Assembly: GCA_016713005.1 (NCBI GenBank)
Contig: JADJPY010000008.1
Span: 1-64,000, forward strand
From: Ramlibacter sp.
GTDB lineage: Bacteria; Pseudomonadota; Gammaproteobacteria; Burkholderiales; Burkholderiaceae_C
Length of the DNA stretch: 64,000 bases
Reading direction: 5' to 3'
The notes under the pieces were generated by a model. The model ran no database searches. It had not been told where the DNA came from and saw only the letters and a program-made list of their open reading frames with translations. This document shows, piece after piece, positions 4,218-31,098 of the stretch. Position 1 is the first letter of the stretch. Every line of letters starts with the position of its first letter. A program made the translations under genes and the position numbers.

Positions 4218-7200
4218 TCAATGAAAGTCCCGGCTCCGGTTGCCCAGCCGGCCGAGCCGGCCCAGCAGGGGCGTCAGGTCGGTGAGCCGCGCGGCCACCA
4301 GATGGCAGACCTGGCCACCGCTGTCCACATCGCGCTGCCAGGTGCCGTGCACGGCCAGCAGGCGCGCGCGAAGCAGGGGCTGGCGCTGGGCCTCGCGCAC
4401 ATGCCGCCACACGATCACGTTGACGGGGCCGGTCTCGTCCTCCAGCGTCACAAAGATGGTGCCCTTGGCCGTCTGGGGCTGCTGGCGCACCGTCACGATG
4501 CCGCAGGCGGCGGCTCGGCGGCCATCGGGCAGCGCAGACAGCTCCTGCGCATTCAGGTAGCCCGTGCGGGCCAGCCGTGCGCGCAACAGGGCCAGCGGAT
4601 GGCGACGCAGCGTCAGGCCGGTGGCGGCGTAGTCAAACAGGATCTCCTCGCCCTCGGGCGCGGGGGGCAGCGCCAGCGCGGCCTCGTGCACGGGCGCGCC
4701 GCGCAGCAGCGCGGGCGCGCGGTGGCGCGCGGCGGCGTCCCACACCTGCTGGCGCCGGTGGCCCGAGAGGCTGTGCAGCGCGTCGGCGGCGGCCAGCGCA
4801 TTCAGGTCTTTCACGTCCAGCTGCGCGCGCAGGGACAGGTCTTCGGTGCTGGCAAAGGGCGCCTGCGCGCGCGCAGCCACGATGCGGCTGGCGCCCTCGC
4901 CGCTCAGCCCGCCCACCATGTGCAGGCCCAGCCGGACTGCTGCGTCCGGGGCCACGTCAGGCCCCGAATAATTGGAATCTGACCCCAATTTCTCCAGTGT
5001 GCAGTCGGTGTGGCTGTGGGAGACGTCGGCGGGCAGCACTTGCACGCCATGGCGACGGGCGTCCTGCACCAGCTGGGCGGGCGGGTAAAAGCCCATGGGC
5101 TGGGAGTTGAGCATCGCGGCCAGGAAGCATGCGGGCTCGTGGCACTTGAGCCAGCTGCTGGCGTAGGCCAGCAGCGCAAAGCTGTAGGCGTGGCTCTCGG
5201 GGAAGCCGTATTCGCCAAAGCCCAGGATCTGCCCGAATATGCGCCGCGCAAACGCATCGGTATAGCCGCGGGCCAGCATGCCGCTGATGAGGGGCGCTTC
5301 GAACCTGTGCACCCCGCCCTTGCGCTTCCAGGCGGCCATGGCACGGCGCAGCGCATCGGCCTGCGTGGCACTGAAGCCGGCGGCCACCATCGAAATCTGC
5401 ATCACCTGCTCCTGGAAGATGGGCACGCCCAGCGTGCGCGCCAGCGCCTCTTTCAGGCGGGGTTCGTCGCCGTCGTGGCTCGAGCGCTCGTACTCGATGG
5501 GCAGGCCGCGGGCGACGCGCTCGCGCGCCTTCAGGTAGGGGTGCACCATGCCGCCGGCAATCGGCCCGGGCCGCACGATGGCGACCTCGATCACCAGGTC
5601 GTAGAAGCGCCGCGGCCGCAGGCGCGGCAGCATGGACATCTGCGCCCGGCTCTCGATCTGGAACACGCCCACCGTGTCGGCGCGGCGGATCATCTCGTAG
5701 GTGGCCGGATCCTCCTGCGGGATGTCACGCAGCTGCATGTCCGTGCCGCGCAGCGCGTTGCGCAGGTGCAGGCAGCGGCGGATGGCGGTGAGCATGCCCA
5801 GCGCCAGCACGTCGACCTTGAGCAGCCCCAGGCTTTCCAGGTCGTCCTTGTCCCACTGGATGACGGAGCGGTCTTTCATGGCCGCGTTCTCCACCGGCAC
5901 CAGCCGGGTCAGGCGGGTTTGCGTCAGCACAAAGCCGCCCACATGCTGGCTCAGGTGGCGCGGAAAGCCGATCAGCTCGCGCGTGAGGCCCAGCCACAGC
6001 CGCGCGGTGTGCACGGGAAGCGCCACGCCGCAGCGCTGCGCCAATTCGTCCAGCCGGTCGTCGGCCAGGCCCTTGTCAAACCACTGGTGCTCGCCGGCAA
6101 AAGCCTCCACCAGCGGCACGGGCACGCCCAGCGCCTTGCCCACGTCGCGGATGGCGCTGCGGGTGCGGTAGCAGGTGACAACGGCGGCAATGGCGGCGCG
6201 CTCGCGGCCGTACTTGGCGTAGATGTACTGGATGACTTCCTCGCGGCGCTCGTGCTCGAAATCCACGTCGATGTCGGGCGGTTCGTTGCGCCGCTCCAGG
6301 CTGATGAAGCGCTCCAGCAGCGGGTGCGAGTGCATGGGGTCGGCCGCGGTGATGCCAAGGCACCAGCACACCACCGAGTTGGCCGCCGAGCCGCGACCCT
6401 GGCAGAGGATGCCTTTGCCCTCGGCAAAGCGCACGATGTCGTCCACGGTCAGGAAAAACATCTCGTAGCGGCATTCGGCAATGAGCCGCAGCTCCTTGAC
6501 CAGGTAGCGGCCGATGCGCATGGGCAGGCCCTGCGGGTAACGCCGCGCCGCGCCTTGCAGCGTGCGCCGGCGCAGCGCCTGCGCGGGGCTCAGGCCTTCG
6601 GGCACCGTCTCCAGCGGGTAGTTGTAGCGCACCTCGTCCAGGCTGAAGCGGCAGCGCCGCGCCACCTCCAGCGTGGCGGCCAGCAGCGCCGGCGGATAGA
6701 TGTGGGCCAGGCGCGCGCGCAGCCGCAGGTGGCGCTCGGCGTTGGGCTGCAAACCGAAACCGCAGTCGGCCACCGGCCGGCCCAGACGCACGGCGGTGAT
6801 CACGTCCTGCAGCGGCTTGCGCGAGCGCACGTGCATGTGCACGTCGCCCGCGGCCACCAGCGGCACGCCGGTTTGTGCGCCCAGGGCCTGCAGCGTGGCC
6901 AGCCAGGCCTCGTCGTCGGGGCCGTGCAGCAACTCGGCCCCCAGCCAGATATCCAGGGGAAATATGGCCCTGAGCCCCGCCAGAATTGATCGGATAGCTA
7001 TCAAATTAATAGCATCCTGAGCACGACGCTCAGGGACGAAGAGCAGCTCGCATCCGCCCAGGCGGTGCAGCGCGGCCTCCGCGCCGGGCACGCGGTAGTC
7101 GCCCTTGGGCGCGTTGCGCCGCGCCGCGGTGATGAACTCGCACAGGTTGCCCCAGCCGTCCAGGTCGCGCGCCAGCGCCACCAGGCGAAAGCCCTCAAAC

Positions 7201-7445
7201 GCGAACTCCGCGCCGGCCAGCAGCTTCAGGCCCAGCTCGCGCGCCTTCATGTGCGCGCGCACCAGCCCGGCGACCGAGCATTCGTCGGTGATGGCCAGCG
7301 CCTCGTAGCCCAGATCAAAGGCGCGCTGCACCAGTTCTTCGGGGTGCGAGGCGCCCCGCTGGAAGCTGAAGTTGCTTAAAGCGTGCAGCTCGGCATAGCT
7401 GGGGAGGTGACCGGGCAGATAACCGGGCAGGGCCGACTCAGGCAT
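4218..7445 (-). CDS. dnaE2: Error-prone DNA polymerase III alpha-type subunit DnaE2 (ImuC)
   Basis: PHP domain N-terminus (SYAELHALSNFSFQRGAS), about 1075 aa, last gene of the imuA-imuB-dnaE2 cassette. Start was set at MPESALPGY (ATG 7443-7445). Confidence 0.9.
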   Translation of the reverse strand: MPESALPGYLPGHLPSYAELHALSNFSFQRGASHPEELVQRAFDLGYEALAITDECSVAGLVRAHMKARELGLKLLAGAEFAFEGFRLVALARDLDGWGNLCEFITAARRNAPKGDYRVPGAEAALHRLGGCELLFVPERRAQDAINLIAIRSILAGLRAIFPLDIWLGAELLHGPDDEAWLATLQALGAQTGVPLVAAGDVHMHVRSRKPLQDVITAVRLGRPVADCGFGLQPNAERHLRLRARLAHIYPPALLAATLEVARRCRFSLDEVRYNYPLETVPEGLSPAQALRRRTLQGAARRYPQGLPMRIGRYLVKELRLIAECRYEMFFLTVDDIVRFAEGKGILCQGRGSAANSVVCWCLGITAADPMHSHPLLERFISLERRNEPPDIDVDFEHERREEVIQYIYAKYGRERAAIAAVVTCYRTRSAIRDVGKALGVPVPLVEAFAGEHQWFDKGLADDRLDELAQRCGVALPVHTARLWLGLTRELIGFPRHLSQHVGGFVLTQTRLTRLVPVENAAMKDRSVIQWDKDDLESLGLLKVDVLALGMLTAIRRCLHLRNALRGTDMQLRDIPQEDPATYEMIRRADTVGVFQIESRAQMSMLPRLRPRRFYDLVIEVAIVRPGPIAGGMVHPYLKARERVARGLPIEYERSSHDGDEPRLKEALARTLGVPIFQEQVMQISMVAAGFSATQADALRRAMAAWKRKGGVHRFEAPLISGMLARGYTDAFARRIFGQILGFGEYGFPESHAYSFALLAYASSWLKCHEPACFLAAMLNSQPMGFYPPAQLVQDARRHGVQVLPADVSHSHTDCTLEKLGSDSNYSGPDVAPDAAVRLGLHMVGGLSGEGASRIVAARAQAPFASTEDLSLRAQLDVKDLNALAAADALHSLSGHRRQQVWDAAARHRAPALLRGAPVHEAALALPPAPEGEEILFDYAATGLTLRRHPLALLRARLARTGYLNAQELSALPDGRRAAACGIVTVRQQPQTAKGTIFVTLEDETGPVNVIVWRHVREAQRQPLLRARLLAVHGTWQRDVDSGGQVCHLVAARLTDLTPLLGRLGRLGNRSRDFH
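6981..7013. repeat. AT-rich small palindromic element (compound: CAGAATTGATCGGATAGC + GCTATCAAATTAATAGC), in-frame inside dnaE2
   Basis: Read directly. Family consensus GCTATC-W6-GTAGC. Confidence 0.7.
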
Positions 7446-8739
7446 AGAACCCCTGCAGGAACCATCGCCCCGACCCGCCACCGGCGAGCGCCGGCCGCTC
7501 GCGGTACACCCACACCAGCCCGGCCTGCGGGCTGTGGGCGATGAAATAGTCGCGCAGCGCCGGGCCGCCACCCTCCCACCAGCCGGCCTCGATGCGGTGC
7601 AGGCGCGTCAGCCGGCGCAGCGGGCCACCGTACTGCGGCACGTCCCGCTCCACCGCCAGCGCCAGCGGCTCGCGCAGCAGCCAGGTGGGGTACAGGACGT
7701 CCGCGGCTGGAGGGCTGGCGTGCGCGGCAGAAGGAGTGGCGCCCCCCTCGCCTGCGCCCTGCCCGCGCGCGCTCACCCAGCGCTGCATGGCCTCGGGCCG
7801 GTGGTCGGCCTGCGCCACGGGTACCTGCACCTGGTCTTCCCCCAGCCGCGCACTCAGGCGCTCCACCAGTTCGTGCAGGCGCTCGCCGGGGCGGTTGTCC
7901 TCGGGCAGGAAGCTGCGGCTTGCGCCCAGCCAGGGCGCGCTGTCGGTGAGGCGCAGGCGCAAGTGGCTGGCGGGCGCGGCCAGGCGCACGCGCGCGAGCT
8001 GCTCGCCCACCAGCCGGCGCAGGTGGGCCATGTCCTGCGCGGGCTGCGCCGTGCGCACCGTCAGTGATTCGTGGGGCGGCAGCGGCACGCCATCCAGGCG
8101 CTTGAGGTCCAGCGTCCACTGCAACTGCAGCGCCAGCGCGCCACGGTCGCGCGCGCGCAGCCAGGCCTGCAGTTGCAGCAGCAGGCGCTGCGCGGCCCAC
8201 ATCAGCCCGGGCGCAGTGGTGGCCAGCGCAGGCAGCTCCAGGCTGGCGTCAAACACCTCAGGCAGGGTCAGCCAGACGCAGGCGGCGGGCCGCTCGCCAT
8301 AGGCCGTGTCCAGCGCCTCCAGCAGGGGCGCGCCAAAGCGCCGCGCCACACCCCCGCGCGGCAGCGCGCGCAGCTGGCCCCACTGGCGGCAACCGGTGCG
8401 CGCCAGCGTGTCCAGCCAGGGCTGCGCGGCCGTCAGCGTGGACAGCGGCAGCCCGTCGGGCACGGCGGGCGGCACAGCCAGCCCCTGGCGCTGCAGGCGC
8501 AGGAGCGCGATTGCTATCAAATATGTAGCGGCTCGTGCATATTCCACGCGGGCTGCGGCATGATTTGGCCTGAAAAGACGGCGCAGCAGGCGATCTGGCC
8601 CGCCCCACAGCCGGTGCGAGGCCGAGACCTCCAGCACCAGTGCCTCGTCCACCTGCGCCACCCGCGGCGTGAACTGCAGCGCGCGCCAGCCCCAGGCGGT
8701 GTGCTCGCCCTCAGGTGGCAACAGCGCGATCCAGTGCAT
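7438..8739 (-). CDS. imuB: ImuB, Y-family DNA polymerase-like protein of the mutagenesis cassette
   Basis: Starts MHWIALLPPEGEH... as typical for ImuB. It overlaps the dnaE2 start by 8 nt and the imuA end by 29 nt, which indicates an operon. Confidence 0.85.
   Translation of the reverse strand: MHWIALLPPEGEHTAWGWRALQFTPRVAQVDEALVLEVSASHRLWGGPDRLLRRLFRPNHAAARVEYARAATYLIAIALLRLQRQGLAVPPAVPDGLPLSTLTAAQPWLDTLARTGCRQWGQLRALPRGGVARRFGAPLLEALDTAYGERPAACVWLTLPEVFDASLELPALATTAPGLMWAAQRLLLQLQAWLRARDRGALALQLQWTLDLKRLDGVPLPPHESLTVRTAQPAQDMAHLRRLVGEQLARVRLAAPASHLRLRLTDSAPWLGASRSFLPEDNRPGERLHELVERLSARLGEDQVQVPVAQADHRPEAMQRWVSARGQGAGEGGATPSAAHASPPAADVLYPTWLLREPLALAVERDVPQYGGPLRRLTRLHRIEAGWWEGGGPALRDYFIAHSPQAGLVWVYRERPALAGGGSGRWFLQGFYA
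8511..8531. repeat. Same element family (TTGCTATCAAATATGTAGCGG), in-frame inside imuB
   Basis: Read directly. Confidence 0.7.
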
Positions 8740-9487
8740 GACCGGCCTCCCGGGATGCGGGGGCGCCCGCCCGCGAGGGCGTGGCAGGGGGCCGCGCCAT
8801 GCCGCCCCGGCGTGTGGCCAGCAGCGCCGCCAGCCGCGCTGGGTGGGCGGGCAGCACCAGCGGCTCATCCAGCGGTGGCCCACGCCGCTTGAGGATGCGC
8901 AGCTGCAGCGTGTCGGTGCCCTGCAGCAGCAGGCGAAGCCGCGCGGGCGAGGATTCGTGCTGCGCCGCGGGCGTGCGGAACACCACCAGCAGCCGCCGGT
9001 GCTGCTGCGCGGCCAGGTGCAGCCGGCGCAGCGCATCCGCACGGGCCTGGGGCAGCCAGGCCAGCACGGCCACCCCATCGGCGCAGCGCAGCGCCTGCTC
9101 GGTGGCCCACAGGCCGGCAGCGGGCTGGCCCGCGCGCACCCACAGCAGCCGCCCCGGCGGCAGGCCCTGCGCAGCCAGCGCAGGGCCGAACGGCACCTGC
9201 GGCGCATCCACCAGCACCACCGGCCCGGGCTGCGCCCGCACCAGCTGCGCCAGCGAGGGCAACAGCAACTGCCACACGTGCAGACCGGGCCGGGCCTGCA
9301 GCACCTCCACCAGGCCGTCCAGCGGCCAGCCGCCACCGGGCAACTGCGCGTCCAGCGCGGCGTGGCCGGTGGACACCTGCGCCGACACCGGCGCGCACGC
9401 CTCCCCGCGCCAGACATGGGGCAAGTCATCTGGCAAGGCGGCGGGCAGGCGAACGGGCGTCACAACGGATGAGAAAAGGAGCGTCAA
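8711..9487 (-). CDS. imuA: ImuA (SulA/RecA-like SOS-induced protein)
   Basis: LPHVWRG...GHAALDAQLPGGGWP motif of the ImuA family. The start codon is TTG at 9485-9487 or a downstream GTG. A LexA box lies immediately upstream. Confidence 0.8.
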   Translation of the reverse strand: MTLLFSSVVTPVRLPAALPDDLPHVWRGEACAPVSAQVSTGHAALDAQLPGGGWPLDGLVEVLQARPGLHVWQLLLPSLAQLVRAQPGPVVLVDAPQVPFGPALAAQGLPPGRLLWVRAGQPAAGLWATEQALRCADGVAVLAWLPQARADALRRLHLAAQQHRRLLVVFRTPAAQHESSPARLRLLLQGTDTLQLRILKRRGPPLDEPLVLPAHPARLAALLATRRGGMARPPATPSRAGAPASREAGHALDRAVAT

Positions 9488-9574: not shown

Positions 9575-9893
9575 TCAGCCAGGGGGGTGGCGCATCTGGC
9601 GCAACAACTCGCGCTTGCGGGTGGCGTTGGCCGCGCGCCAGGCCTCGCGAGCCAGTGCCAGGAAGCGCTCTTCGGCTTCGTCGGGGCCGGCGGCTTCGGC
9701 ATGCGCCCCGTCCAGCCAGCCGGCCGGCTGGCCGCACAGGCTTTCGATCTGGCGCGCCAGCTTGTCGCCGATCGGGCGCGACGACTTGATCTGGCTGAGC
9801 ATGCTCGGCGAGACCTGCAGCAGCGCCGCGAACTCCTGCTCCAGGCCCTTGGGCGGCGCGCCTTCGCTGATGCGCTGTTGCAGGAACTGCTGC
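9575..9893 (-). CDS. XRE-family (Cro/CI-type) HTH transcriptional regulator, about 106 aa
   Basis: ATG at 9891-9893. The HTH reads LEQEFAALLQVSPSMLSQIKSS. It lies directly upstream of the LexA box and imuA on the same strand. A GTG at 9938 would give 121 aa. Confidence 0.6.
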
Positions 9894-10263
9894 ATGAGCC
9901 AGGCGGTGTTGGAGCGCCGTGCCGTGGTGATGTTGGTCACGTGTTGAATTTCCACAACGTATTTGCAACACGGATTGTCGTGTGTGTTGACAGCGCAGTA
10001 AAGACTCTTTACAGTCCAACCCGTCGCAGCCGGATCGTCCGGCAGCAAGACATTTTTCAAGGCCAGCAGGACACATCGTGAGAACCGCCAACGCCCCGAA
10101 ACAAAGCCAGTTCCCAACGGGACGGCTTGCGTTCGTGCGCACCCGTGCGTTCACGTCGTTGCCGCAGATTTGCGCGCATGCCCTGGGCATGAATGGCTAT
10201 GAGGATCGACCCCCACCGGGCGAGGAGTGCGTGTAAGCGCAGCCCTCCACTCTCTGACACCAG

Positions 10264-10301
10264 AGGCCCGGTTTCGAAAGGAACCGGGCCTTTTTGTTTT
10301 T
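10264..10301 (+). terminator. Rho-independent terminator: 10-bp perfect stem AGGCCCGGTT/AACCGGGCCT, 8-nt loop, then TTTTTGTTTTT
   Basis: Read directly. It lies on the plus strand in a 470-bp non-coding spacer. Confidence 0.7.
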
Positions 10302-10397
10302 CCGCGCGGCCATCGAGCCGCCACCGGCACTGTGCCGGATTGTTCGTTAACAACTTGCCGCAAGCGCGCCACCGGTACTGGCCGGAGGGCGCCTTGC

Positions 10398-10444
10398 AAA
10401 AAAAGAAAAAGCGGATGCGCGGGTGCACAACACCCGCCATCCGC
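10398..10444 (-). terminator. Rho-independent terminator on the minus strand: imperfect GC hairpin (GCGGATGCGCGGGTG...CACCCGCCATCCGC) followed, on the minus strand, by U7CU5
   Basis: Read directly. It faces the plus-strand terminator at 10264-10301. Confidence 0.55.
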
Positions 10445-10593
10445 CACTTCGGGTGTGCCTATGCACCACCGCCAGCCAAGCCCAAGGTCCGGGCCGGCGG
10501 GATGTGCACGGGGTCGCACCCCATGTGCAGCGAGAAAGCCCGTCGGCTCGCCGGCGCTCGCGCATGGACACAGCCGAAGTGGAAATTGGAGAA

Positions 10594-10671
10594 GTCGTGT
10601 TCGTCTAGCTGGCCCAGGACACCGGTCTTTCATACCGGAGATCGCGGGTTCGAGTCCCGCACACGACGCCA
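10594..10671 (+). tRNA. tRNA-Glu (anticodon UUC), CCA encoded
   Basis: Manual fold: acceptor GTCGTGT/ACACGAC, anticodon loop CTTTCAT, T-loop TTCGAGT. Close to the E. coli tRNA-Glu sequence. Confidence 0.85.
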
Positions 10672-10760
10672 GAACCCAAGCCTTGCCGCGCTCACGCGGC
10701 GGGCGTAAACCGGCCGCAAAGATTGGGCGGCTCCGGAACCCGTCACCGGAAACCTTTTTT

Positions 10761-10836
10761 GCTCCGTTAACTCAGTGGCCAGAGTGCCGGCCTGTCTAGC
10801 CGGAGGCCGCGGGTTCGACTCCCGCACGGGGCGCCA
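10761..10836 (+). tRNA. tRNA-Asp (anticodon GUC), CCA encoded; unusual U37
   Basis: Acceptor GCTCCGT/ACGGGGC, anticodon stem CCGGC/GCCGG, loop CTGTCTA, T-loop TTCGACT. Confidence 0.8.
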
Positions 10837-10837
10837 G

Positions 10838-10925
10838 GGGTTGCGAGCAGCATTGGCGACTGCACCGGAATGTAAATCCGGCGCCCCAAGGGGCTTACGG
10901 GGTTCGACTCCCTGGCAACCCACCA
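10838..10925 (+). tRNA. tRNA-Tyr (anticodon GUA), type II long variable arm, CCA encoded
   Basis: Acceptor GGGTTGC/GCAACCC, anticodon loop ATGTAAA, 16-nt variable arm. It starts 1 nt after the tRNA-Asp CCA. Confidence 0.85.
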
Positions 10926-10932
10926 AATTTTT

Positions 10933-11008
10933 GCCCCGTTGGCTCAGTGGCGAGAGCACCGGTCTACGAAACCGGGGGTCGCACGTTCAAGTCGTGCACG
11001 GGGTACCA
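10933..11008 (+). tRNA. tRNA-Arg (anticodon ACG), CCA encoded
   Basis: Acceptor GCCCCGT/ACGGGGT (G1·U72 wobble), anticodon loop CTACGAA, T-loop TTCAAGT. Confidence 0.85.
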
Positions 11009-11015
11009 GTTTCGT

Positions 11016-11090
11016 TCTCGCGTAGCTCAGTGGCAGAGCAGCGTCTTGATAAGGCGCAGGCCGGTGGATCGTTCCCATCCGCGAGGACCC
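11016..11090 (+). tRNA. tRNA-Ile (anticodon GAU)-like; non-canonical (U1·G72, T-loop ATCGTTC with A54/U58 swapped, 3' end ACCC with no CCA); may be a pseudo-tRNA or an unusual tRNA
   Basis: Acceptor TCTCGCG/CGCGAGG, anticodon stem-loop GCGTC-TTGATAA-GGCGC. The D-arm is canonical; the T-arm is GGTGG-ATCGTTC-CCATC. Confidence 0.6.
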
Positions 11091-11100
11091 GTCAACACAA

Positions 11101-11176
11101 GCCGCGGTAGCTCAGACGGTAGAGCGCAGGACTGAAATTCCTGGCGGCGGAGGTTCAACTCCTCCCCGTGGCACCA
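11101..11176 (+). tRNA. tRNA-Phe (anticodon GAA), CCA encoded
   Basis: Acceptor GCCGCGG/CCGTGGC, anticodon loop CTGAAAT, T-arm GGAGG-TTCAACT-CCTCC. It is followed by a T6 run. Confidence 0.85.
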
Positions 11177-11206
11177 CTTTTTTCAACCCAACCAAGGAGG
11201 CGCGCC

Positions 11207-11380
11207 ATGCGCAAACAGTCCAAGCTGCGCGTGCTCCGTCCGCGCAACCCCATCGTCCAGGCCCTGGTCCGCCGCATTGCGGGCTTTGCCGTGGGCAGGC
11301 ACCGCGACGCCCGCAAGAACTCGCGCCGCAGCGAGGCGAAAGACCTCGACCAGCGCGTGCGCGAGATCGGCGAATGGTGA
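11207..11380 (+). CDS. Small Arg/Lys-rich hypothetical protein (57 aa) embedded between tRNA-Phe and tRNA-His
   Basis: Strong Shine-Dalgarno AAGGAGG at 11194-11200, 6 nt before ATG 11207. Sequence: MRKQSKLRVLRPRNPIVQALVRRIAGFAVGRHRDARKNSRRSEAKDLDQRVREIGEW. No recognised homology. Confidence 0.5.
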   Translation: MRKQSKLRVLRPRNPIVQALVRRIAGFAVGRHRDARKNSRRSEAKDLDQRVREIGEW

Positions 11381-11390
11381 AGCCATTGAT

Positions 11391-11466
11391 GGTGGCCATG
11401 GCGCAGCGGCGGCGCACCGGGTTGTGACCCCGGGGGTCGCGGGTTCGAATCCCGCTGGCCACCCCA
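11391..11466 (+). tRNA. tRNA-His (anticodon GUG) with genomically encoded G(-1), CCA encoded
   Basis: 8-bp acceptor G-1 GTGGCCA / TGGCCAC C73, anticodon loop TTGTGAC, T-loop TTCGAAT. Confidence 0.9.
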
Positions 11467-11480
11467 AGACTCCAGACAAC

Positions 11481-11567
11481 TCCCCCGTGGCGGAATTGGC
11501 AGACGCACCGGTCTCAGAAACCGCGGCCCGCACGGGCATGTCCGTTCGACTCGGGCCGGGGGAACCA
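11481..11567 (+). tRNA. tRNA-Leu (anticodon CAG), type II; U1-A72 and a C27·C43 mismatch
   Basis: Acceptor TCCCCCG/CGGGGGA, D-arm GCG-GAATTGGCAGA-CGC as in E. coli tRNA-Leu, anticodon loop CTCAGAA, long variable arm GCCCG-CA-CGGGC. Confidence 0.8.
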
Positions 11568-11576
11568 TTTCGATGA

Positions 11577-11652
11577 TGGGGTGTGGTCGAGAGGCCTCAG
11601 ACAGGCGGCTTTGAACCGTCGCACGCTGGTTCGAGTCCAGCCACCCCTGCCA
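11577..11652 (+). tRNA. tRNA-Gln (anticodon UUG); 1:72 is a U·U mismatch
   Basis: Acceptor TGGGGTG/CACCCCT, close to E. coli tRNA-Gln TGGGGTA/TACCCCA. Anticodon stem-loop GGCGG-CTTTGAA-CCGTC, T-loop TTCGAGT. Confidence 0.8.
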
Positions 11653-11682
11653 TTTGATACAGGCCACGAAAGGAGGCCATCC

Positions 11683-12258
11683 ATGCAAGACCAACGACAC
11701 AGCCACGTGCTGCAACTCGACATCCAGGGCACGCCGCAGGCGTGGATCTCGCTCGAGCAGGCGGCGCTTCATGTGGCTGCGGACTCGGTCGCGTGGTCGG
11801 ATGGCCGGGGACCTCTGGCCACGCTGCGCGGTGGCCACAACGTGGCGCGTGGCCGGCAATCCGTGATTGAGGTGCCGCCCATCATCGCGCTGCACGGCGC
11901 CTCGCGGGTCAATCTGTTTGACGTGGTGCCGGCCTTCAGCCGCAGCAAGCTGTTCCGGCGCGACCGGCACACCTGCGCCTACTGCGGCCAGCGTTTCGGC
12001 GAGAACGTGCTGCAGTGCGAGCACATCGTGCCGGCCTCGCGCGGCGGCCGCTGGACCTGGATGAACCTGGTCTCGGCCTGCGGCGCATGCAACGGCCGCA
12101 AGGCCGACCGCACGCCGGAGGAAGCGGGCATGCCGCTCGTGTACCTGCCCTACGTGCCGAGCCGCTACGAAAACTTCCTGCTGGAAGGCCGCGCCATCCG
12201 TGCCGACGTGCACGAGTGGCTGGCGACCCGCCTGCCGAAAGGATCGCGGCTGAACTGA
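11683..12258 (+). CDS. HNH endonuclease (191 aa) embedded in the tRNA array
   Basis: SD AGGAGG at 11671-11676. HNH/zinc-finger motif CAYCGQRFGENVLQCEHIVPASRGG...NLVSACGACNGRK. The N-terminal about 100 aa were not recognised. Confidence 0.8.
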   Translation: MQDQRHSHVLQLDIQGTPQAWISLEQAALHVAADSVAWSDGRGPLATLRGGHNVARGRQSVIEVPPIIALHGASRVNLFDVVPAFSRSKLFRRDRHTCAYCGQRFGENVLQCEHIVPASRGGRWTWMNLVSACGACNGRKADRTPEEAGMPLVYLPYVPSRYENFLLEGRAIRADVHEWLATRLPKGSRLN

Positions 12259-12394
12259 AGGTTCAGCCGCCAACGAATCTGCCGCGAAAAGCAAGACGCT
12301 CACAGGTTGGGGGTAAGACCCCGCCGGTGTGCGGTACCGGGCTGCGCCCGTCGCCGCCGCACATGCCGCTCTTGCCGGAAACGGTGGATACCAG

Positions 12395-12451
12395 GGTGCC
12401 GATGGGGATATGCCCTCGACGGCCCGGGTTCGACTCCCGGCGGCACCACCA
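12395..12451 (+). ncRNA. tRNA-like mini-helix: 7-bp acceptor (GGTGCCG/CGGCACC) + short hairpin + canonical T-arm (CCGGG-TTCGACT-CCCGG) + ACCA; a tRNA 3' fragment lacking D and anticodon arms
   Basis: Manual fold. Only 22 nt lie between the acceptor 5' strand and the T-stem. The 3' CCA overlaps the start of the following Lys-like tRNA. Confidence 0.45.
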
Positions 12452-12522
12452 TTGGATAGCTCATTGGGTAGAGCAGCGAATTTTTAATTCGTCGGTCGCG
12501 GGTTCGAATCCCGCTCCAACTC
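12450..12522 (+). pseudogene. tRNA-Lys (anticodon UUU)-like with a disrupted acceptor stem (positions 1:72 and 2:71 mismatched) and no CCA; probable 5'-truncated tRNA at a recombination junction
   Basis: D-arm GCTC-ATTGGGTA-GAGC, anticodon stem-loop GCGAA-TTTTTAA-TTCGT, T-arm GCGGG-TTCGAAT-CCCGC. The 5' strand CATTGGA pairs with the 3' strand TCCAACT only at positions 3-7. Confidence 0.55.
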
Positions 12523-12769
12523 GGAGAAATCCAAACCGGTCGAAAGACCATGCCGAACGCGGACCGAAGGCGCAAGCCCGAAGTCCGTCAGCGGCGGCGG
12601 CCCGTGCGCCGGGCAAGCGGGGCTTCGCGTCCACGGACAAGCCGGGCAACCACTCGCAAGAGGCGTTGCCCAGGCGCACCGCGGTACCCGGGCCCAGGCA
12701 TCCGGCGTCCACTGCCGTCCCTGTAACGGCACCTATTCCCCCAAACACGCAACCACCAAGGAGAAGAAC

Positions 12770-14872
12770 ATGAAATTCAAGCGTGTCACTGTCAAGAAGA
12801 ACGAACGCGGCCTGCTGCTGCGCAACGGCGATTTCTCGCGCGTGCTGCAGCCCGGCCGGCACTGGCTGTGGGAAGGCTTCGACACGCTTCGCGTCGAGAC
12901 CTTCGCGCTCGAGCAGCCCGCGTTCACGCACGGCCTGGCCGACTACCTGATGGCCAAGGAGCCCGAAGCCGTCGAAGCCAACTTCGTGCGCGTCGAGCTC
13001 GGCGAGACTCAGGTCGGCCTGCGCAGCGAGAATGGCGTGCTGGTCGAGGTGCTGGCGCCCGCCACCCGCCGCCTGTACTGGAAGGGCCTGGTCGACGTGC
13101 AAGTGGAGGTGGTCGACATCGCCGGCACAGCAGAGCTGCCCGCAGCGCTGGTGCACCGCCTGAACAACACGCAGCTGCGCCAACGCAGTGTCGCCGGCCT
13201 GGCCGGTGTGCTGCAGGTGCAGGTGCCCGAGTACGGCGCCGGTGTCCTGACGATCGATAGCAAGGTCGAGCGCCTGCTGCGTCCCGGTTCGTACGCCTTC
13301 TGGAAGTACAACCGCGCGATCGCGGTGGAGCTGGTCGACCTGCGGCTGCAGGCGCTGGAAGTGACGGGCCAGGAAATCCTGACCCGCGACAAGGTCGGCC
13401 TGCGGCTGAACCTGTCGGCCACCTGGCGCTACACCGACGTGCTCAAGGCCTTCACCCAGCTGGCCAAGCCCGCGGAGCACCTGTACCGCGAGCTGCAGTT
13501 CGGCCTGCGCGCCGCCGTGGGAACCCGCACGCTCGATGAGCTGCTGGAGAACAAGACGGTGATCGACGACGTCGTGCGCGCGCACGTGGAAGGCAAGCTC
13601 GCCGGCTTCGGTCTCGCGCTGGACAGCGCGGGCGTGAAGGACGTGGTGCTGCCTGGCGAGATGAAGACCATCCTCGCGCAGGTGGTCGAAGCCGGCAAGT
13701 CGGCCGAGGCCAACGTGATCCGCCGCCGCGAGGAAACCGCGGCGACGCGTTCCCTGCTCAACACGGCCAAGGTGATGGAGGACAACCCCGTCGCCCTGCG
13801 CCTGAAGGAGCTGGAGACGCTGGAACGCGTGGCCGAGCGCATCGACAAGATCTCCGTGTTCGGAGGTCTGGACCAGGTGCTCAACGGGCTGGTATGCGTT
13901 AGGGGGGTTCCGCAGCCCCTTTACTCGAAGAACACCATCGGCCAAGAAAAGCAAATCAAGATCAAGCAGCCTCCGGTCCTGTTTGGGAAAACCCAAACCG
14001 TGCTGGCCAAGCTGGCCGATCAACTGGGCGGTCCGCTGGTCGCCTACTGGAACAACCCGCGCGGCTCGGTCTGCCATTCGGACGTGCTGGCCCTGTACGA
14101 CGTGCTGGGCCGCATCGGCCGCCAGGACACCATCTACCTGTTCCTGAAGTCTGACGGCGGCAGTGGCCAGGTGTCCCTGCGGCTGGTGAACCTGCTGCGC
14201 CAGCATTGCCGCCAACTGGTGGCGCTGGTGCCGCTGGAATGCGCCTCCGCCGCCACGATGATCGCGCTGGGCGCCGACCGTATCCTGATGGGCCCGACGG
14301 CCTACCTGACGGCGGTGGACACGTCGCTGAACCACGCCCTGTCGCCCGTCGACCGCGACAACGACCGGGAGCACGAGCGAGTGGGGGCTGTCCAGATGCA
14401 CCCGCCGGCCATGTGGCGCAGGGGCCGGGGGGGGGCCGCCCCCCCCCCGGGGGGGGGGGGGGGGGCGGCCGGCCCCCGCGGGGGGGGGGGGCGGGGGGGA
14501 GAAAAAGCGACCGCGCTCAACTCGAAGTACCCGTCGCACAGCTACCCCATCCTGCTGGACGAGGCGGTAAAAATCGGGCTGAAGGCCGAGCGCATGCCGC
14601 AGGAGGTCAACACCCTGCTGCTGGAGCTCAACGGCTACTACAGCGAGATGGGCCAGAAGGCAACCACGGACTTCGACGAGATCCGCGCCCACGGCAACGA
14701 GATCGCCAACATCTGGGAGGCCACCGGTGTGCAGGTGTTCTACCAGCAGGACAAGGACTGGTTCTACCGGGCCGAGGAAAGGCGCTGGATCACGATGAAC
14801 GACAACAGCGGCTGGCGCCGCATCGAACGCGCCGGCAACCGCATCAAACGCAGCCTGCTGCACGTGGCTTGA
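12770..14872 (+). CDS. SPFH/band-7 (stomatin-like) domain fused to a ClpP-fold SDH-family (NfeD/STOPP-like) serine protease domain; contains an internal low-complexity poly-G/C segment
   Basis: SD AGGAGA before ATG 12770. The N-terminal about 370 aa are SPFH-like. The middle has the SDH-family motif YLFLKSDGGSGQ...ECASAATMIALGADRILMGPTAYL. Positions 14422-14500 encode the junk-like stretch RRGRGGAAPPPGGGGGAAGPRGGGG. Confidence 0.6.
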   Translation: MKFKRVTVKKNERGLLLRNGDFSRVLQPGRHWLWEGFDTLRVETFALEQPAFTHGLADYLMAKEPEAVEANFVRVELGETQVGLRSENGVLVEVLAPATRRLYWKGLVDVQVEVVDIAGTAELPAALVHRLNNTQLRQRSVAGLAGVLQVQVPEYGAGVLTIDSKVERLLRPGSYAFWKYNRAIAVELVDLRLQALEVTGQEILTRDKVGLRLNLSATWRYTDVLKAFTQLAKPAEHLYRELQFGLRAAVGTRTLDELLENKTVIDDVVRAHVEGKLAGFGLALDSAGVKDVVLPGEMKTILAQVVEAGKSAEANVIRRREETAATRSLLNTAKVMEDNPVALRLKELETLERVAERIDKISVFGGLDQVLNGLVCVRGVPQPLYSKNTIGQEKQIKIKQPPVLFGKTQTVLAKLADQLGGPLVAYWNNPRGSVCHSDVLALYDVLGRIGRQDTIYLFLKSDGGSGQVSLRLVNLLRQHCRQLVALVPLECASAATMIALGADRILMGPTAYLTAVDTSLNHALSPVDRDNDREHERVGAVQMHPPAMWRRGRGGAAPPPGGGGGAAGPRGGGGRGGEKATALNSKYPSHSYPILLDEAVKIGLKAERMPQEVNTLLLELNGYYSEMGQKATTDFDEIRAHGNEIANIWEATGVQVFYQQDKDWFYRAEERRWITMNDNSGWRRIERAGNRIKRSLLHVA
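14422..14500. repeat. Cluster of long G and C homopolymer tracts (G9, C10, G17, G12, G7) inside the SPFH-protease CDS
   Basis: Read directly. Confidence 0.8.
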
Positions 14873-14875
14873 CCC

Positions 14876-16120
14876 GTGCCGGGATGCCAAGGAGAAACAC
14901 CATGGAAGAAACCAACTACATCGAAGAAGAACCCTGGCGGCGTGCCCATCAGGATGTGGACGCGCGGTGTGCCGGTGGAAGACGCGGCCAGGCGCCAGCT
15001 GACGAATGCAGCCCGCCTGCCGGTTGTCTTCCCGCACATCGCGGTCATGCCCGACGTGCACCTGGGCATCGGCGCTACGGTCGGTTCGGTCATCCCCACC
15101 CTGCGCGCCATCATTCCGGCGGCGGTGGGCGTGGACATTGGCTGCGGCATGATGGCCTGCAAGACCACGTTGGTGGCGAGCGACCTGCCCGACAACCTGG
15201 GGCCGCTGCGCGAGGCGATCGAGCGCACGGTGCCGCACGGGCGCTCCCCCGGCGCGCGCGACCCCGGCGCTTGGGGCAAGGTACCGGGCTCGGTGGACAC
15301 GGCCTGGGCGCAGCTGGAGCCCGATTTCACCGAGCTGTGCCGCGACTACCCCAAGCTGGCCAAAACCAACAACCGCGCCCACCTGGGCACGCTGGGCACG
15401 GGCAACCACTTCATCGAGGTCTGCCTGGACGAAGCGGGGTTTGTGTGGTTCATGCTGCACTCGGGCTCGCGCGGCGTGGGCAACTTCATCGGCACGATGT
15501 TCATCGAGCTGGCGAAGCAGGACGCAATGCGCAACCAGGTCAACCTGCCGGACCGCGACCTGGCCTACTTCGAGGAAGGTTCGCGCTACTTTGGCGATTA
15601 CGTGCGCGCCGTGGGCTGGGCCCAGCGCTTTGCGGCGCTGAACCGCGAGGTGATGATGCGCCATGTGATCGAAGTCACCAAGACGGTGATCCGCAAGAGC
15701 TTCCAGGCACACATCGAGGCGGTGAACTGCCACCACAACTATGTGCAGAAGGAGCACCACTTCGGAGAAGACGTGTACGTCACCCGCAAGGGCGCGGTCA
15801 GCGCGAAGGTCGGGCAGCTGGGGATCATCCCCGGCAGCATGGGCGCGCGCAGCTACATCGTGCGTGGCAAGGGCAACCCAGAGTCGTTCGAGTCCTGCTC
15901 GCACGGCGCCGGGCGCGTCATGAGCCGCGGCGACGCCAAACGCCGCTTTACCCTGGCGGACCACCGAGCTGCCACCGAGGGCGTGGAGTGCCGCAAGGAT
16001 CAGGGCGTCATCGACGAGACGCCCGCCGCGTACAAGGACATTGACGCGGTGATGGCGGCGCAGGACGACCTGGTGGAGGTGCTGCACACCCTCAAGCAGG
16101 TCGTGTGCGTCAAGGGGTAA
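14876..16120 (+). CDS. rtcB: RNA-splicing ligase RtcB (3'-phosphate/5'-OH RNA ligase); N-terminus ambiguous and probably frameshifted
   Basis: Strong similarity to E. coli RtcB from MWTRGVPVEDAARRQL...HIAVMPDVHLGIGATVGSVIPT through the C-terminal HGAGR motif. The ORF track frame starts at GTG 14876 with no SD. An SD (AAGGAG, 14889-14894) plus ATG 14902 lie in the +2 frame. Confidence 0.85.
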   Translation: MPGCQGETPWKKPTTSKKNPGGVPIRMWTRGVPVEDAARRQLTNAARLPVVFPHIAVMPDVHLGIGATVGSVIPTLRAIIPAAVGVDIGCGMMACKTTLVASDLPDNLGPLREAIERTVPHGRSPGARDPGAWGKVPGSVDTAWAQLEPDFTELCRDYPKLAKTNNRAHLGTLGTGNHFIEVCLDEAGFVWFMLHSGSRGVGNFIGTMFIELAKQDAMRNQVNLPDRDLAYFEEGSRYFGDYVRAVGWAQRFAALNREVMMRHVIEVTKTVIRKSFQAHIEAVNCHHNYVQKEHHFGEDVYVTRKGAVSAKVGQLGIIPGSMGARSYIVRGKGNPESFESCSHGAGRVMSRGDAKRRFTLADHRAATEGVECRKDQGVIDETPAAYKDIDAVMAAQDDLVEVLHTLKQVVCVKG

Positions 16121-30796: not shown

Positions 30797-30829
30797 AATC
30801 CCGGGTGCCCGTAGCAAAGCCGGTAGAAT

Positions 30830-31025
30830 CCGGCCAGTCAGGAGAGCGTCTCCCCCGCGGAGGCCGCCGAAGGCGCAGGGACACCCCGAACGCTCAGGCA
30901 AAAGGACTGGCGAAGCGCCCCGCAGGGGGTGTTTCCTTGCTGGAGAGAGGCCTCCCTCGCGGAGGTCCACCGAAGGAGCAAGCGCCGTATCGCCGGCGTG
31001 AATCTCTCAGGTAAAGCGGACAGCA
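30830..31025 (+). ncRNA. Tandem glycine riboswitch (two aptamers) in the gcvT leader
   Basis: Aptamer 1 is GGAGAG...ACCGAAGGCGCA...CTCAGGCAAAAGGAC at about 30840-30908. Aptamer 2 is CTGGAGAGAG...CACCGAAGGAGCAA...CTCTCAGGTAAAGCGGACAG at about 30939-31023. A terminator-like hairpin GCCTTGTTCAGCAAGGC plus U-rich run follows. Confidence 0.85.
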
Positions 31026-31098
31026 GGGGCAGCCCATGGCGCGGCCTTGTTCAGCAAGGCCGGGTTGTGGTTTCAAGGTTTGCCCCGGAGAACGCCGC

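Follow-up and report, generated by a model that had tools for sequence, protein, structure and literature searches.

The 64-kb stretch of DNA analyzed here (the window; Ramlibacter sp., contig JADJPY010000008.1) bears on the old question of why extra tRNA genes are found in phages, plasmids and some bacteria. It contains nine tRNA genes packed on the plus strand in 1.06 kb (10594-11652), several of which deviate from the canonical tRNA at positions that are nearly universal. We consider it probable that these genes encode tRNAs that look functional and are maintained by selection, that they belong to a horizontally mobile cassette of the L-array type, and that they constitute a stress back-up set associated with the RNA ligase RtcB. 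The observations behind this proposal concern the structure, conservation and covariation of the genes, the synteny of the cassette, and the sharing of particular features with phage tRNA clusters. The oddities exceed what would be expected by chance, given that most of them recur in orthologous arrays and three of them in phage tRNA clusters. Specific tRNA lineages are common to the bacterial array and many phage clusters, and in these lineages unusual nucleotides are kept by selection at three structural sites while the anticodon is unchanged.

Structure of the nine tRNA genes

ARAGORN predicts ten tRNA-like genes on the plus strand between 10594 and 12522, and nine of them form the array. 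According to ARAGORN and the Rfam family RF00005, their isotypes are, in order, Glu, Asp, Tyr, Arg, Ile, Phe, His, Leu and Gln. The RF00005 gathering score of 29 bits is reached by eight of the nine genes (Phe 67.1, Arg 63.6, His 63.6, Asp 63.5, Glu 61.5, Ile 51.9, Gln 46.3 and Leu 41.2 bits), and the order Phe > Ile > Gln > Leu is the one expected from the defects of these genes. The exception is tRNA-Tyr, which is not listed under RF00005 and whose sole listed clan match is tRNA-Sec, with 26.9 bits.

The near-universal positions that we considered are U8/A14, a purine at position 37, U54/A58, a paired 1:72 and a 3' CCA. The complete set is present in tRNA-Glu(UUC) (10594-10671), essentially canonical by ARAGORN and the Rfam covariance model, in the canonical tRNA-Phe(GAA) (11101-11176), called by ARAGORN and the best Rfam match of the array, and in tRNA-His(GUG) (11391-11466), which has the CCA end and, at 11391, the encoded G-1 opposite C73 that a first-pass annotation of this DNA had pointed out. 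The set is broken in tRNA-Asp(GUC) (10761-10836), where the anticodon loop CUGUCUA places a U at position 37, followed by A38, and where 10 and 25 form an A-U pair. It is also broken in tRNA-Ile(GAU) (11016-11090): the acceptor stem UCUCGCG/CGCGAGG (aligned to the covariance model over 11016-11087) ends in a U1·G72 pair, the T-arm GGUGG-AUCGUUC-CCAUC has A54 and U58 in swapped positions, and A73 is followed by CCC (11088-11090) instead of CCA. In tRNA-Gln(UUG) (11577-11652) the acceptor stem UGGGGUG/CACCCCU leaves a U1·U72 mismatch, flagged as a non-pair by the covariance model, and in tRNA-Tyr(GUA) (10838-10925; ARAGORN), which has a long variable arm, G8/C14 replace U8/A14. Of the remaining genes, tRNA-Leu(CAG) (11481-11567) has U1-A72 (UCCCCCG/CGGGGGA) and a C27·C43 mismatch, also flagged as a non-pair, and tRNA-Arg(ACG) (10933-11008) has G1·U72 and a short D-loop without A20, both as aligned to the covariance model.

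The first-pass annotation had described the Ile, Gln and Leu deviations and the pyrimidine 37 of tRNA-Asp from manual folding, with the caution that an automated fold might shift the stems and yield canonical pairs. When the genes were aligned to the covariance model, all of these deviations stayed. The G8/C14 of tRNA-Tyr, the lack of A20 in tRNA-Arg, and the A10-U25 pair and A38 of tRNA-Asp are additional to that description. The structures and their deviations are real sequence, not assembly errors, since the region 9896-12770 is 100% identical in two further assemblies of the same species, a JGI metagenome (L097) and an NCBI assembly (L099); here and below, L followed by a number denotes a comparison locus fetched for this analysis. 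In the canonical tRNAs of Escherichia coli, which were confirmed at 100% identity in public genomes, the Asp anticodon loop is CUGUCAC, the Ile T-loop is UUCAAGU, tRNA-Leu has G1-C72, and tRNA-Gln has the U1-A72 pair with which the first-pass annotation had compared the window gene.

Conservation of the deviations in related arrays

For the comparison with other arrays, tRNA positions were parsed from the ARAGORN calls and then checked by alignment. Among 157 well-parsed array tRNAs, positions 54/58 are U/A in 140, and U58 is never seen without A54; the genes that have a pyrimidine at position 37 are almost all tRNA-Asp, and nearly all of the parsed tRNAs encode the CCA end. In tRNA-Asp the pyrimidine is present in 12 of the 13 aligned array copies, and C37 is also found in the Burkholderia plasmid pM7012 (L095) and in a Variovorax plasmid cluster (L096). 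Counted by array, about 15 of 16 have the pyrimidine. Positions 32-36 and A38 are invariant in this alignment, A10-U25 is present in 12 of 13 copies, and the cloverleaf is strongly maintained, with 99.6% of cells paired and compensatory changes in 15 of 21 pairs, a value that was not reached in any of 500 shuffles. A search of plasmids and chromids for the canonical Burkholderiales tRNA-Asp recovered only another plasmid-borne cluster, with one C37 copy and one copy of the canonical type.

The end of tRNA-Gln shows a comparable pattern. The 1:72 position is U·U in the window and in L013, L021, L029 and L092, C·U in L054, and G·U in L095. Apart from this position the stems differ between these genes, with G73, G2-C71 and G3-C70 retained. 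The T-loop AUCGU(U/G)(C/A), with A54:U58, is present in tRNA-Ile(GAU) of the window, L013, L054 and L091, and also in a paralogous tRNA with the anticodon CAU in L012, L013, L018, L021 and L054. In the family formed by these Ile and CAU genes, A54:U58 is found in 9 of 12 members, 15 of 22 pairs show compensatory changes, and 1:72 is the sole pair that is regularly weak or broken. For the long-arm tRNA-Leu(CAG), the relatives have C1-G72 and the window has U1-A72, so that both sides have changed and a pyrimidine-purine pair (Y1-R72) is preserved. From these alignments, four family hallmarks, i.e. pyrimidine 37/A38 with A10-U25 in Asp, N1·U72 in Gln, A54:U58 in Ile/CAU, and Y1-R72 in Leu, are kept by selection. 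The hallmark substitutions spare the anticodons, the discriminators and most synthetase identity elements; in tRNA-Ile(GAU) the identity positions A73, C4-G69, U12-A23 and A37/A38 are all present in the sequence. The features private to the species of the window are the CCC tail of tRNA-Ile, C27·C43 in tRNA-Leu, G8/C14 in tRNA-Tyr, the lack of A20 in tRNA-Arg, and a deleted tRNA-Gly in the leader of the array.

These private lesions are what would be expected if the array were a neutral leftover of horizontal transfer and its oddities represented damage in decaying pseudo-tRNAs. The same explanation would account for the great variation of tRNA content among loci, and for a sister strain that has lost three of the genes and has a mosaic HNH region; moreover, L-arrays have long been reported to be poorly expressed, and 3 of the 26 array genes of Anabaena are pseudogenes (PMC8421152). 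However, the main oddities are common to arrays of many genera and are accompanied by abundant compensatory changes in the stems, the parsed array tRNAs encode CCA nearly throughout, the anticodons and most identity elements are intact, and phage tRNA clusters, whose base composition is unrelated, show three of the features as well. Neutral decay accounts for the lesions private to the species and for the genes lost at strain level but not for the conserved, covarying features, and we regard it as an unlikely account of the array. The term pseudo-tRNA, proposed in the first-pass annotation, does not hold as a general description, given that many compensatory changes keep the cloverleaves and that CCA is almost always encoded; for single genes, such as tRNA-Ile with its CCC tail or those missing from the sister strain (Ile, Phe and Gln), it is possible.

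Features shared with phage tRNA clusters

IMG/VR was scanned for exact copies of the T-arm of the window tRNA-Ile, GGTGGATCGTKCCCAYC, and 58 viral contigs matched. Fifty of the matches lie within tRNAs, and 38 of those are tRNA-Ile(GAU) genes that are almost identical to the window gene in the D-arm, the anticodon arm, the variable loop and the T-arm. These genes belong to clusters of 5-30 tRNAs on contigs with 34-59% GC. A scan with the D-arm recovered viral members of the same tRNA-Asp family, in which the loop is CUGUCUA, and a viral scan with a Gln D-arm pattern gave a single match, which is not a tRNA. When all the tRNAs of 85 viral loci were pooled, 713 distinct, well-formed, CCA-ending genes were obtained. 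In this pool tRNA-Asp is the only isotype with a pyrimidine at position 37; 5 of its 23 genes have one, each as U37 followed by A38, and the backbones of these genes are quite different. tRNA-Gln has U1·U72 in 22 of 38 genes and U-A in 9, and 54 tRNAs, of many isotypes, have A54:U58. The pattern used for the search biases the Ile count but not the counts for Gln and for position 37 of Asp.

One of the contigs, L126 (IMG/VR 3300044842_000041), encodes a large terminase and is a bona fide phage. Its cluster of 13 tRNAs is flanked by an Rnl-type RNA ligase, a Clp protease, PhoH and a DUF2828/DUF7788 protein (RNA-binding according to PHROGs). The Rnl-type ligase shows no homology to RtcB of the window, and the set is a functional parallel to the tRNAs, protease and RtcB found there.

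The array could also be a codon-supply cluster of an integrated phage, whose tRNAs would compensate for the codon usage of that phage. The tRNA cluster includes an HNH endonuclease, as do those of many phages; viral contigs share the Ile and Asp lineages; and IMG/VR proviruses begin at a gene homologous to the HNH gene. On inspection, these proviruses are integrase-bearing prophages integrated beside the HNH gene and not around the array, and they were rejected as array carriers. Near the array there are no phage structural, integrase or lysis genes, its flanks being imuA/B-dnaE2 and CoA-transferase genes; a search for direct repeats that could represent attachment sites around the island was negative; a DNA search at the level of the whole locus matched only single tRNAs in phage genomes; and, judging from their anticodons, the tRNAs decode the major GC-rich codons of the host. 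A prophage origin of this kind is therefore very unlikely.

Distribution and turnover of the cassette

The proposal of a mobile, selectively maintained cassette is in agreement with its distribution. Homologous cassettes, with variable tRNA content, were found in about 25 Burkholderiales genomes and on megaplasmids. Among the 80 closest RtcB loci, about 20 have an upstream array of 4-18 tRNA genes on the same strand, and tblastn searches revealed a recurrent order: a divergent regulator, the array, the HNH gene, a tRNA-like RNA, the Band-7 gene and RtcB. The module of regulator, array and HNH gene is present without RtcB on the megaplasmids L091 (Variovorax paradoxus, 10 tRNAs), L092 (Methylibium petroleiphilum PM1, 27 tRNAs) and L095 (pM7012 of Burkholderia sp. 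M701, 45 tRNAs); other homologous arrays include 16 (L013) and 18 (L021) tRNA genes. The array is sporadic, transferred and supernumerary, in that it accompanies only some of the 80 RtcB loci, in varied contexts, and occurs on conjugative megaplasmids. The suggestion of the first-pass annotation that the tRNAs derive from mobile genetic elements is thus well supported: the cassette occupies differing chromosomal sites as well as conjugative megaplasmids, it includes an HNH endonuclease of the family that accompanies tRNA arrays across phyla, and its Ile and Asp genes belong to lineages that are also present in phage tRNA clusters.

An alternative is that the deviations are simply the usual build of these isoacceptors in this bacterial group. 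A tRNA-Ile of a Duganella rRNA operon, caught by chance in L084, has G1·U72, so a weak 1:72 pair may be partly a trait of the lineage; yet the same tRNA has a normal T-loop (UUCGAGC, with U54/A58), and the non-array tRNAs caught in the fetched loci are canonical. In addition, the array genes are supernumerary, plasmid-borne, and present or absent between strains and genera, and the same features occur in low-GC phage clusters. We consider this explanation extremely unlikely.

The gene content of the array turns over even within a species, as indicated by the sister strain L098 (JGI 3300056759), which lacks the Ile, Phe and Gln genes (equivalent to 11032-11215 and 11573-11665 of the window). 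Its HNH region is mosaic, only 95% identical and with many indels, a pattern that suggests recombination or gene conversion within the array.

Several sister arrays carry further unusual genes. In the 27-tRNA array of the M. petroleiphilum PM1 plasmid, an HD-domain protein and an AlkB dioxygenase are encoded at 9535-10887 of L092; like RtcB, AlkB is a repair enzyme for nucleic acids that is linked to an array. A tRNA-Cys(GCA) of 85-87 nucleotides, with C1-G72, U73 and a long extra arm, a build unusual for this isotype, is present at L020:9808-9893, L021:1695-1780, L028:6683-6768, L092:9427-9513 and L095:8644-8728. In some arrays, a tRNA-Leu(CAG) of 77 nucleotides lacks the long variable arm that defines bacterial tRNA-Leu (L008:6969-7045, L025:7330-7406, L029:3330-3406). 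Most sister arrays also include a second type of tRNA-His, with U at -1 and the 3' end C73-CCC-AA instead of C73-CCA (L007:7271-7343, L012:163-235 and L013:6887-6959, among others); tRNA-His of the window is of the canonical type.

A possible role as a stress back-up set

In Anabaena sp. PCC 7120, the L-array of the trn operon is silent, is induced by ribosome-targeting antibiotics or translational stress, and aids survival; under induction, 23 of its 26 tRNAs were detected and found to be aminoacylated (PMC8421152). L-arrays have spread by horizontal transfer and have a linked HNH gene and a co-regulated rtcB (PMC8421152), and the regulon of the repressor TrcR of Anabaena includes the trn operon and rtcB as well as HNH and a slipin/Band-7 gene (PMC10272220). 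In the window, these components are brought together in one cassette.

By analogy with the trn operon, the regulator and the leader terminator of the window cassette would keep the expression of the array low, and impaired translation would lead to read-through into it. The array would then supply a second set of tRNAs while RtcB reseals those that have been cleaved. The hallmarks alter sites used by tRNA-targeting nucleases and modification enzymes, i.e. the acceptor end, the T-loop and the 3' side of the anticodon, and since the anticodons and most identity elements are spared, the back-up set would stay usable when the housekeeping set is attacked. The Gln 1:72 mismatch should be tolerated, because E. 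coli GlnRS opens this pair on binding, and A54 would preclude the formation of m5U54.

Known toxins act at these places. CdiA-CT EC3006 and Kp342 cleave tRNA-Ile(GAU) after C71 or C72, tRNA-Ile(GAU) and tRNA-Gln are both cut at the acceptor's 3' end by known toxins, and the Burkholderia E479 toxin cleaves the T-loop between T and pseudouridine (PMC9086364); it has also been proposed that phage tRNAs escape anticodon nucleases through changes in the loop (PMC10264068). By analogy, evasion of nucleases by the array tRNAs is plausible.

A bolder version of this idea is that the conserved deviations (Asp pyrimidine 37/A38, Gln N1·U72, and A54:U58 in Ile, CAU and other isoacceptors) represent an escape code shared by mobile tRNAs, placed where toxins or defence nucleases contact or cleave, namely at the acceptor end, the bond between T54 and Ψ55, and the anticodon's 3' side. 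In that case the island would be a chromosomal rescue module, in which a leader-peptide attenuator responds to stalled translation by turning on toxin-proof tRNAs and RtcB repairs the housekeeping ones. We put this forward tentatively, as a possibility that we think has the odds against it. The point mutations that follow from it, U37A/A38C in Asp, U72A in Gln and A54U/U58A in Ile, would address escape from tRNA-cleaving toxins or from host modification.

Several points weigh against the stress back-up interpretation. Expression, charging, control by attenuation and nuclease evasion are features that we infer. The lesions specific to the window, together with the loss of Ile, Phe and Gln in L098, suggest relaxed selection on individual genes, and the alternation of U and C at position 37 of Asp could reflect neutral transitions from one founder. 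The canonical comparison is based on E. coli, the Duganella tRNA-Ile and general tRNA rules, and the viral sample was picked by two sequence patterns and does not represent random phages. No toxin or defence gene was identified in the window, and the array tRNAs of Anabaena are not strictly needed to rescue translation (PMC8421152).

Regulator, promoter and leader of the array

A putative helix-turn-helix (HTH) regulator of the XRE type is encoded divergently from the array (9575-9955, minus strand; 126 amino acids according to the sister assemblies). A gene is called here in L097, and an alternative ATG at 9895 would give 106 amino acids. The match to HTH_3 is weak (E=0.004) and below the cut-off. 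By tblastn, homologs of this regulator lie divergently upstream of the array in about 20 loci, including the plasmids L091 and L092; the HTH regulator annotated upstream of the pM7012 array has no similarity to it.

A sigma-70-like promoter facing the array, TTGACA-17-TACAGT, is predicted at 9987-10015 (plus strand; 10/12 positions in a consensus scan), and the motif is kept across alignment A1 of the leader. A sigma-54 promoter considered upstream of the leader tRNA was discarded, because its elements are wrongly spaced and the motif forms one side of a hairpin. The promoter is followed on the plus strand by a leader open reading frame (ORF) of 52 amino acids (10078-10236) with a GTG start and an AGGA ribosome-binding site at 10068-10071. 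The frame of this ORF is preserved despite indels in about 20 loci, with the C-terminal consensus NE(D/G)xxHPGEGSA, and a conserved hairpin encloses its stop codon. The ORF ends about 25 nucleotides before a strong intrinsic terminator or attenuator (10262-10300, plus strand; terminator scan), which consists of a hairpin with a 14-bp stem and a T-run and is conserved in 11 loci with some covariation. That a conserved leader ORF stops just ahead of a terminator suggests ribosome-dependent attenuation, and these two elements could be a translation-sensing attenuator of the tRNA operon.

Downstream of the terminator, alignment A1 identified a long covarying hairpin on the plus strand (10360-10397; GCAAG..CCGG-UACUGG-CCGG..CUUGC), with compensatory differences between loci, and the remnant of a leader tRNA-Gly (10411-10446, plus strand), in which the arms GCGGAUG/CAUCCGC and the CCA are retained and the interior has been replaced by a hairpin. 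This tRNA is intact in L013 (4398-4473), L021 (866-941), L054 (3423-3498), L091 and L092. The arrays begin with a tRNA-Gly(GCC), whose anticodon loop in several RtcB-linked arrays reads ACGCCAU, so that C33 takes the place of the near-universal U33; the leader tRNA-Gly of L009 and L015 has an insertion in the anticodon loop. Between the leader tRNA and the first tRNA of the array lies a multi-stem RNA of about 150 nucleotides (10444-10593, plus strand), for which RNAalifold predicted 47 pairs from eight loci, 17 of them with compensatory changes. In its closing helix, CCACUUCGG/CCGAAGUGG, the CCA end of the leader tRNA pairs with a downstream UGG. The multi-stem RNA matches no Rfam family, and an Rfam search of the leader (9850-10620) gave only insignificant matches.

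HNH gene, tRNA-like RNA and RtcB operon

Between tRNA-Phe and tRNA-His there is a small basic ORF of 57 amino acids with an AAGGAGG ribosome-binding site (11207-11380, plus strand). The gene is also called in L097 and L099, a homolog was found only in L008, and a Pfam search returned no family match. The array is followed by the HNH gene (11683-12258, plus strand; 191 amino acids; Pfam HNH_5, 3e-15). According to tblastn, HNH homologs end the array in many loci, and relatives with 35-45% amino acid identity are encoded on array-bearing plasmids of Nostoc, Acaryochloris, Mycobacterium, Tsukamurella and Rhodococcus, groups that are known for their tRNA arrays; at the Acaryochloris locus no tRNAs were found within 9 kb.

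The region 12259-12769 (plus strand; ARAGORN, Rfam and alignment A5) contains a conserved structured RNA of about 510 nucleotides upstream of the Band-7 gene. In this RNA an acceptor/T-arm minihelix (12395-12451), which ends in ACCA, is fused to a tRNA-like element (12450-12522). ARAGORN calls the latter tRNA-Lys(UUU), the tenth gene of its prediction. Its match to the tRNA model is limited to positions 3-68, with an acceptor stem of 5 bp and no CCA, and in alignment A5 the arms are conserved while the "anticodon" differs in every related locus. The element is not a true tRNA but a tRNA-like RNA, and it is also found in SPFH-rtcB loci without arrays. It fits the band-7-associated tRNA predicted beside RtcB (bioRxiv 10.1101/312249, citing Burroughs & Aravind 2016). 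For annotation purposes, the genes of the array should be taken neither as housekeeping tRNAs nor as simple pseudogenes, and the tRNA-Lys next to Band-7 should be taken as a tRNA-like RNA.

The operon continues on the plus strand with the Band-7/SPFH gene and an SDH-type, Clp-like protease gene (12770-14872; Pfam Band_7, 1.3e-27, and SDH_protease), and with the gene for RtcB, a 3'-phosphate/5'-OH RNA ligase (14876-16120; Pfam RtcB, 2.4e-125). In the window, Band-7 and the protease are read as a single ORF of 700 amino acids, and the sister assemblies call two genes of 378 and 336 amino acids. Compared with two assemblies of the same species, the window alone shows small deletions, indels and a poly-G/C stretch (130 nucleotides) at 13894-13942 and 14369-14499, and a 2-nucleotide indel at 14932. 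An exact look-up of the 700-amino-acid SPFH ORF gave no match, because of these window-only changes. The fusion and the altered N-terminus of RtcB are probably sequence or assembly errors, and the array is unaffected by them. The closest relatives of RtcB are 89% identical, and many of them have upstream arrays; the source of the window is a high-GC member of the Burkholderiales, in the Rubrivivax/Aquabacterium/Methylibium group.

The physical coupling of the array to a tRNA-like RNA and RtcB raises the question of whether the nine genes encode tRNA-like RNAs with a role outside translation, such as decoys or sponges for tRNases, cofactors or substrates of RtcB/Band-7, or regulators. Changes such as the pyrimidine 37, G8/C14 and A54:U58 should impair decoding or the tertiary structure, and the fold has nevertheless been kept; in addition, a sponge role has been proposed for the array tRNAs of Anabaena (PMC8421152). 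The anticodons, discriminator bases and CCA ends of the array genes are nonetheless conserved as in working tRNAs, and the Asp loop is invariant at positions 32-36, in contrast with the freely varying "anticodon" of the element upstream of Band-7. Given also that the Anabaena array tRNAs are aminoacylated in vivo (PMC8421152), we judge a non-translational role to be improbable.

Relation to known systems

The stress back-up set that we propose resembles the L-arrays (Santamaria-Gomez et al. 2021, PMC8421152; PMC4758250) in several aspects. Both consist of dense, supernumerary tRNA genes on the same strand, with encoded CCA, that occur sporadically on chromosomes and megaplasmids; the linked HNH gene is of the same family (at the 35-45% identity given above, with the Nostoc and Acaryochloris plasmid genes); rtcB and Band-7/slipin are associated with both, through TrcR co-regulation in Anabaena and physical linkage in the window; and the homologous plasmid array of Methylibium PM1 has already been catalogued. 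Tran et al. (2016) defined L-arrays by at least 20 genes and at least 2 genes per kb (PMC4758250); the window array reaches this density but not, with nine genes, this number, and its relatives have 16-45 genes. The cassette also differs in its putative regulator, of XRE-type HTH in the window and a ribbon-helix-helix protein (TrcR) in Anabaena, in the conserved leader ORF and terminator that precede the array, and in the fusion to the RtcB operon.

With the operons of band-7-associated tRNA and RtcB, and with the related Rsr-YrlA-RtcB operons, the locus has in common an RtcB gene downstream of Band-7 and a tRNA-like RNA that has conserved D- and T-arms, no proper acceptor end and a non-conserved "anticodon". 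In contrast, the window lacks Ro60/Rsr, RtcA and RtcR, and it adds the acceptor/T-arm minihelix, the leader of about 510 nucleotides and a full array of real tRNAs upstream.

Phage tRNA clusters, for which resistance to host tRNases has been proposed (van den Berg et al. 2023, PMC10264068), including the repair by T4 Rnl/Pnkp of tRNA-Lys cut by PrrC, are similar with regard to the Ile A54:U58 and Asp U37 lineages, the U·U end of tRNA-Gln, the HNH genes inside the clusters, and the RNA-repair enzymes beside the tRNAs, such as the Rnl-type ligase and Clp protease of L126. The window cassette, however, is chromosomal and without phage genes, and its ligase is RtcB, which is not homologous to Rnl. 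Moreover, the published idea of evasion refers to changes in the anticodon loop, whereas two of the three hallmarks of the window affect other sites, namely the acceptor end and the T-loop.

tRNA arrays, their HNH genes, the link to rtcB and the band-7-associated tRNA have all been described before. The conserved non-canonical positions, and the fact that they are shared with phage clusters, appear to be new: a keyword look-up found no mention of them in the portions of the tRNA-array literature that it covered, and a literature search for A54/U58 T-loops returned no paper. The conserved leader ORF, the terminator and the structured RNAs before the array also appear to be undescribed. At this locus, tRNAs of this kind are physically joined to an RtcB repair operon, and also to a leader that may sense translation.

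Flanking genes

The island comprises about 6.5 kb, between the imuA/imuB-dnaE2 side and the CoA-transferase side. On the left, dnaE2, which encodes an error-prone polymerase, and ORFs similar to imuB and imuA are located on the minus strand (4218-9487); on the right are CoA-transferase genes. According to tblastn, these flanks are not syntenic with other array loci. Elsewhere in the window, a tandem glycine riboswitch (30829-31033) lies upstream of gcvT-gcvH-gcvP, which is an ordinary arrangement.

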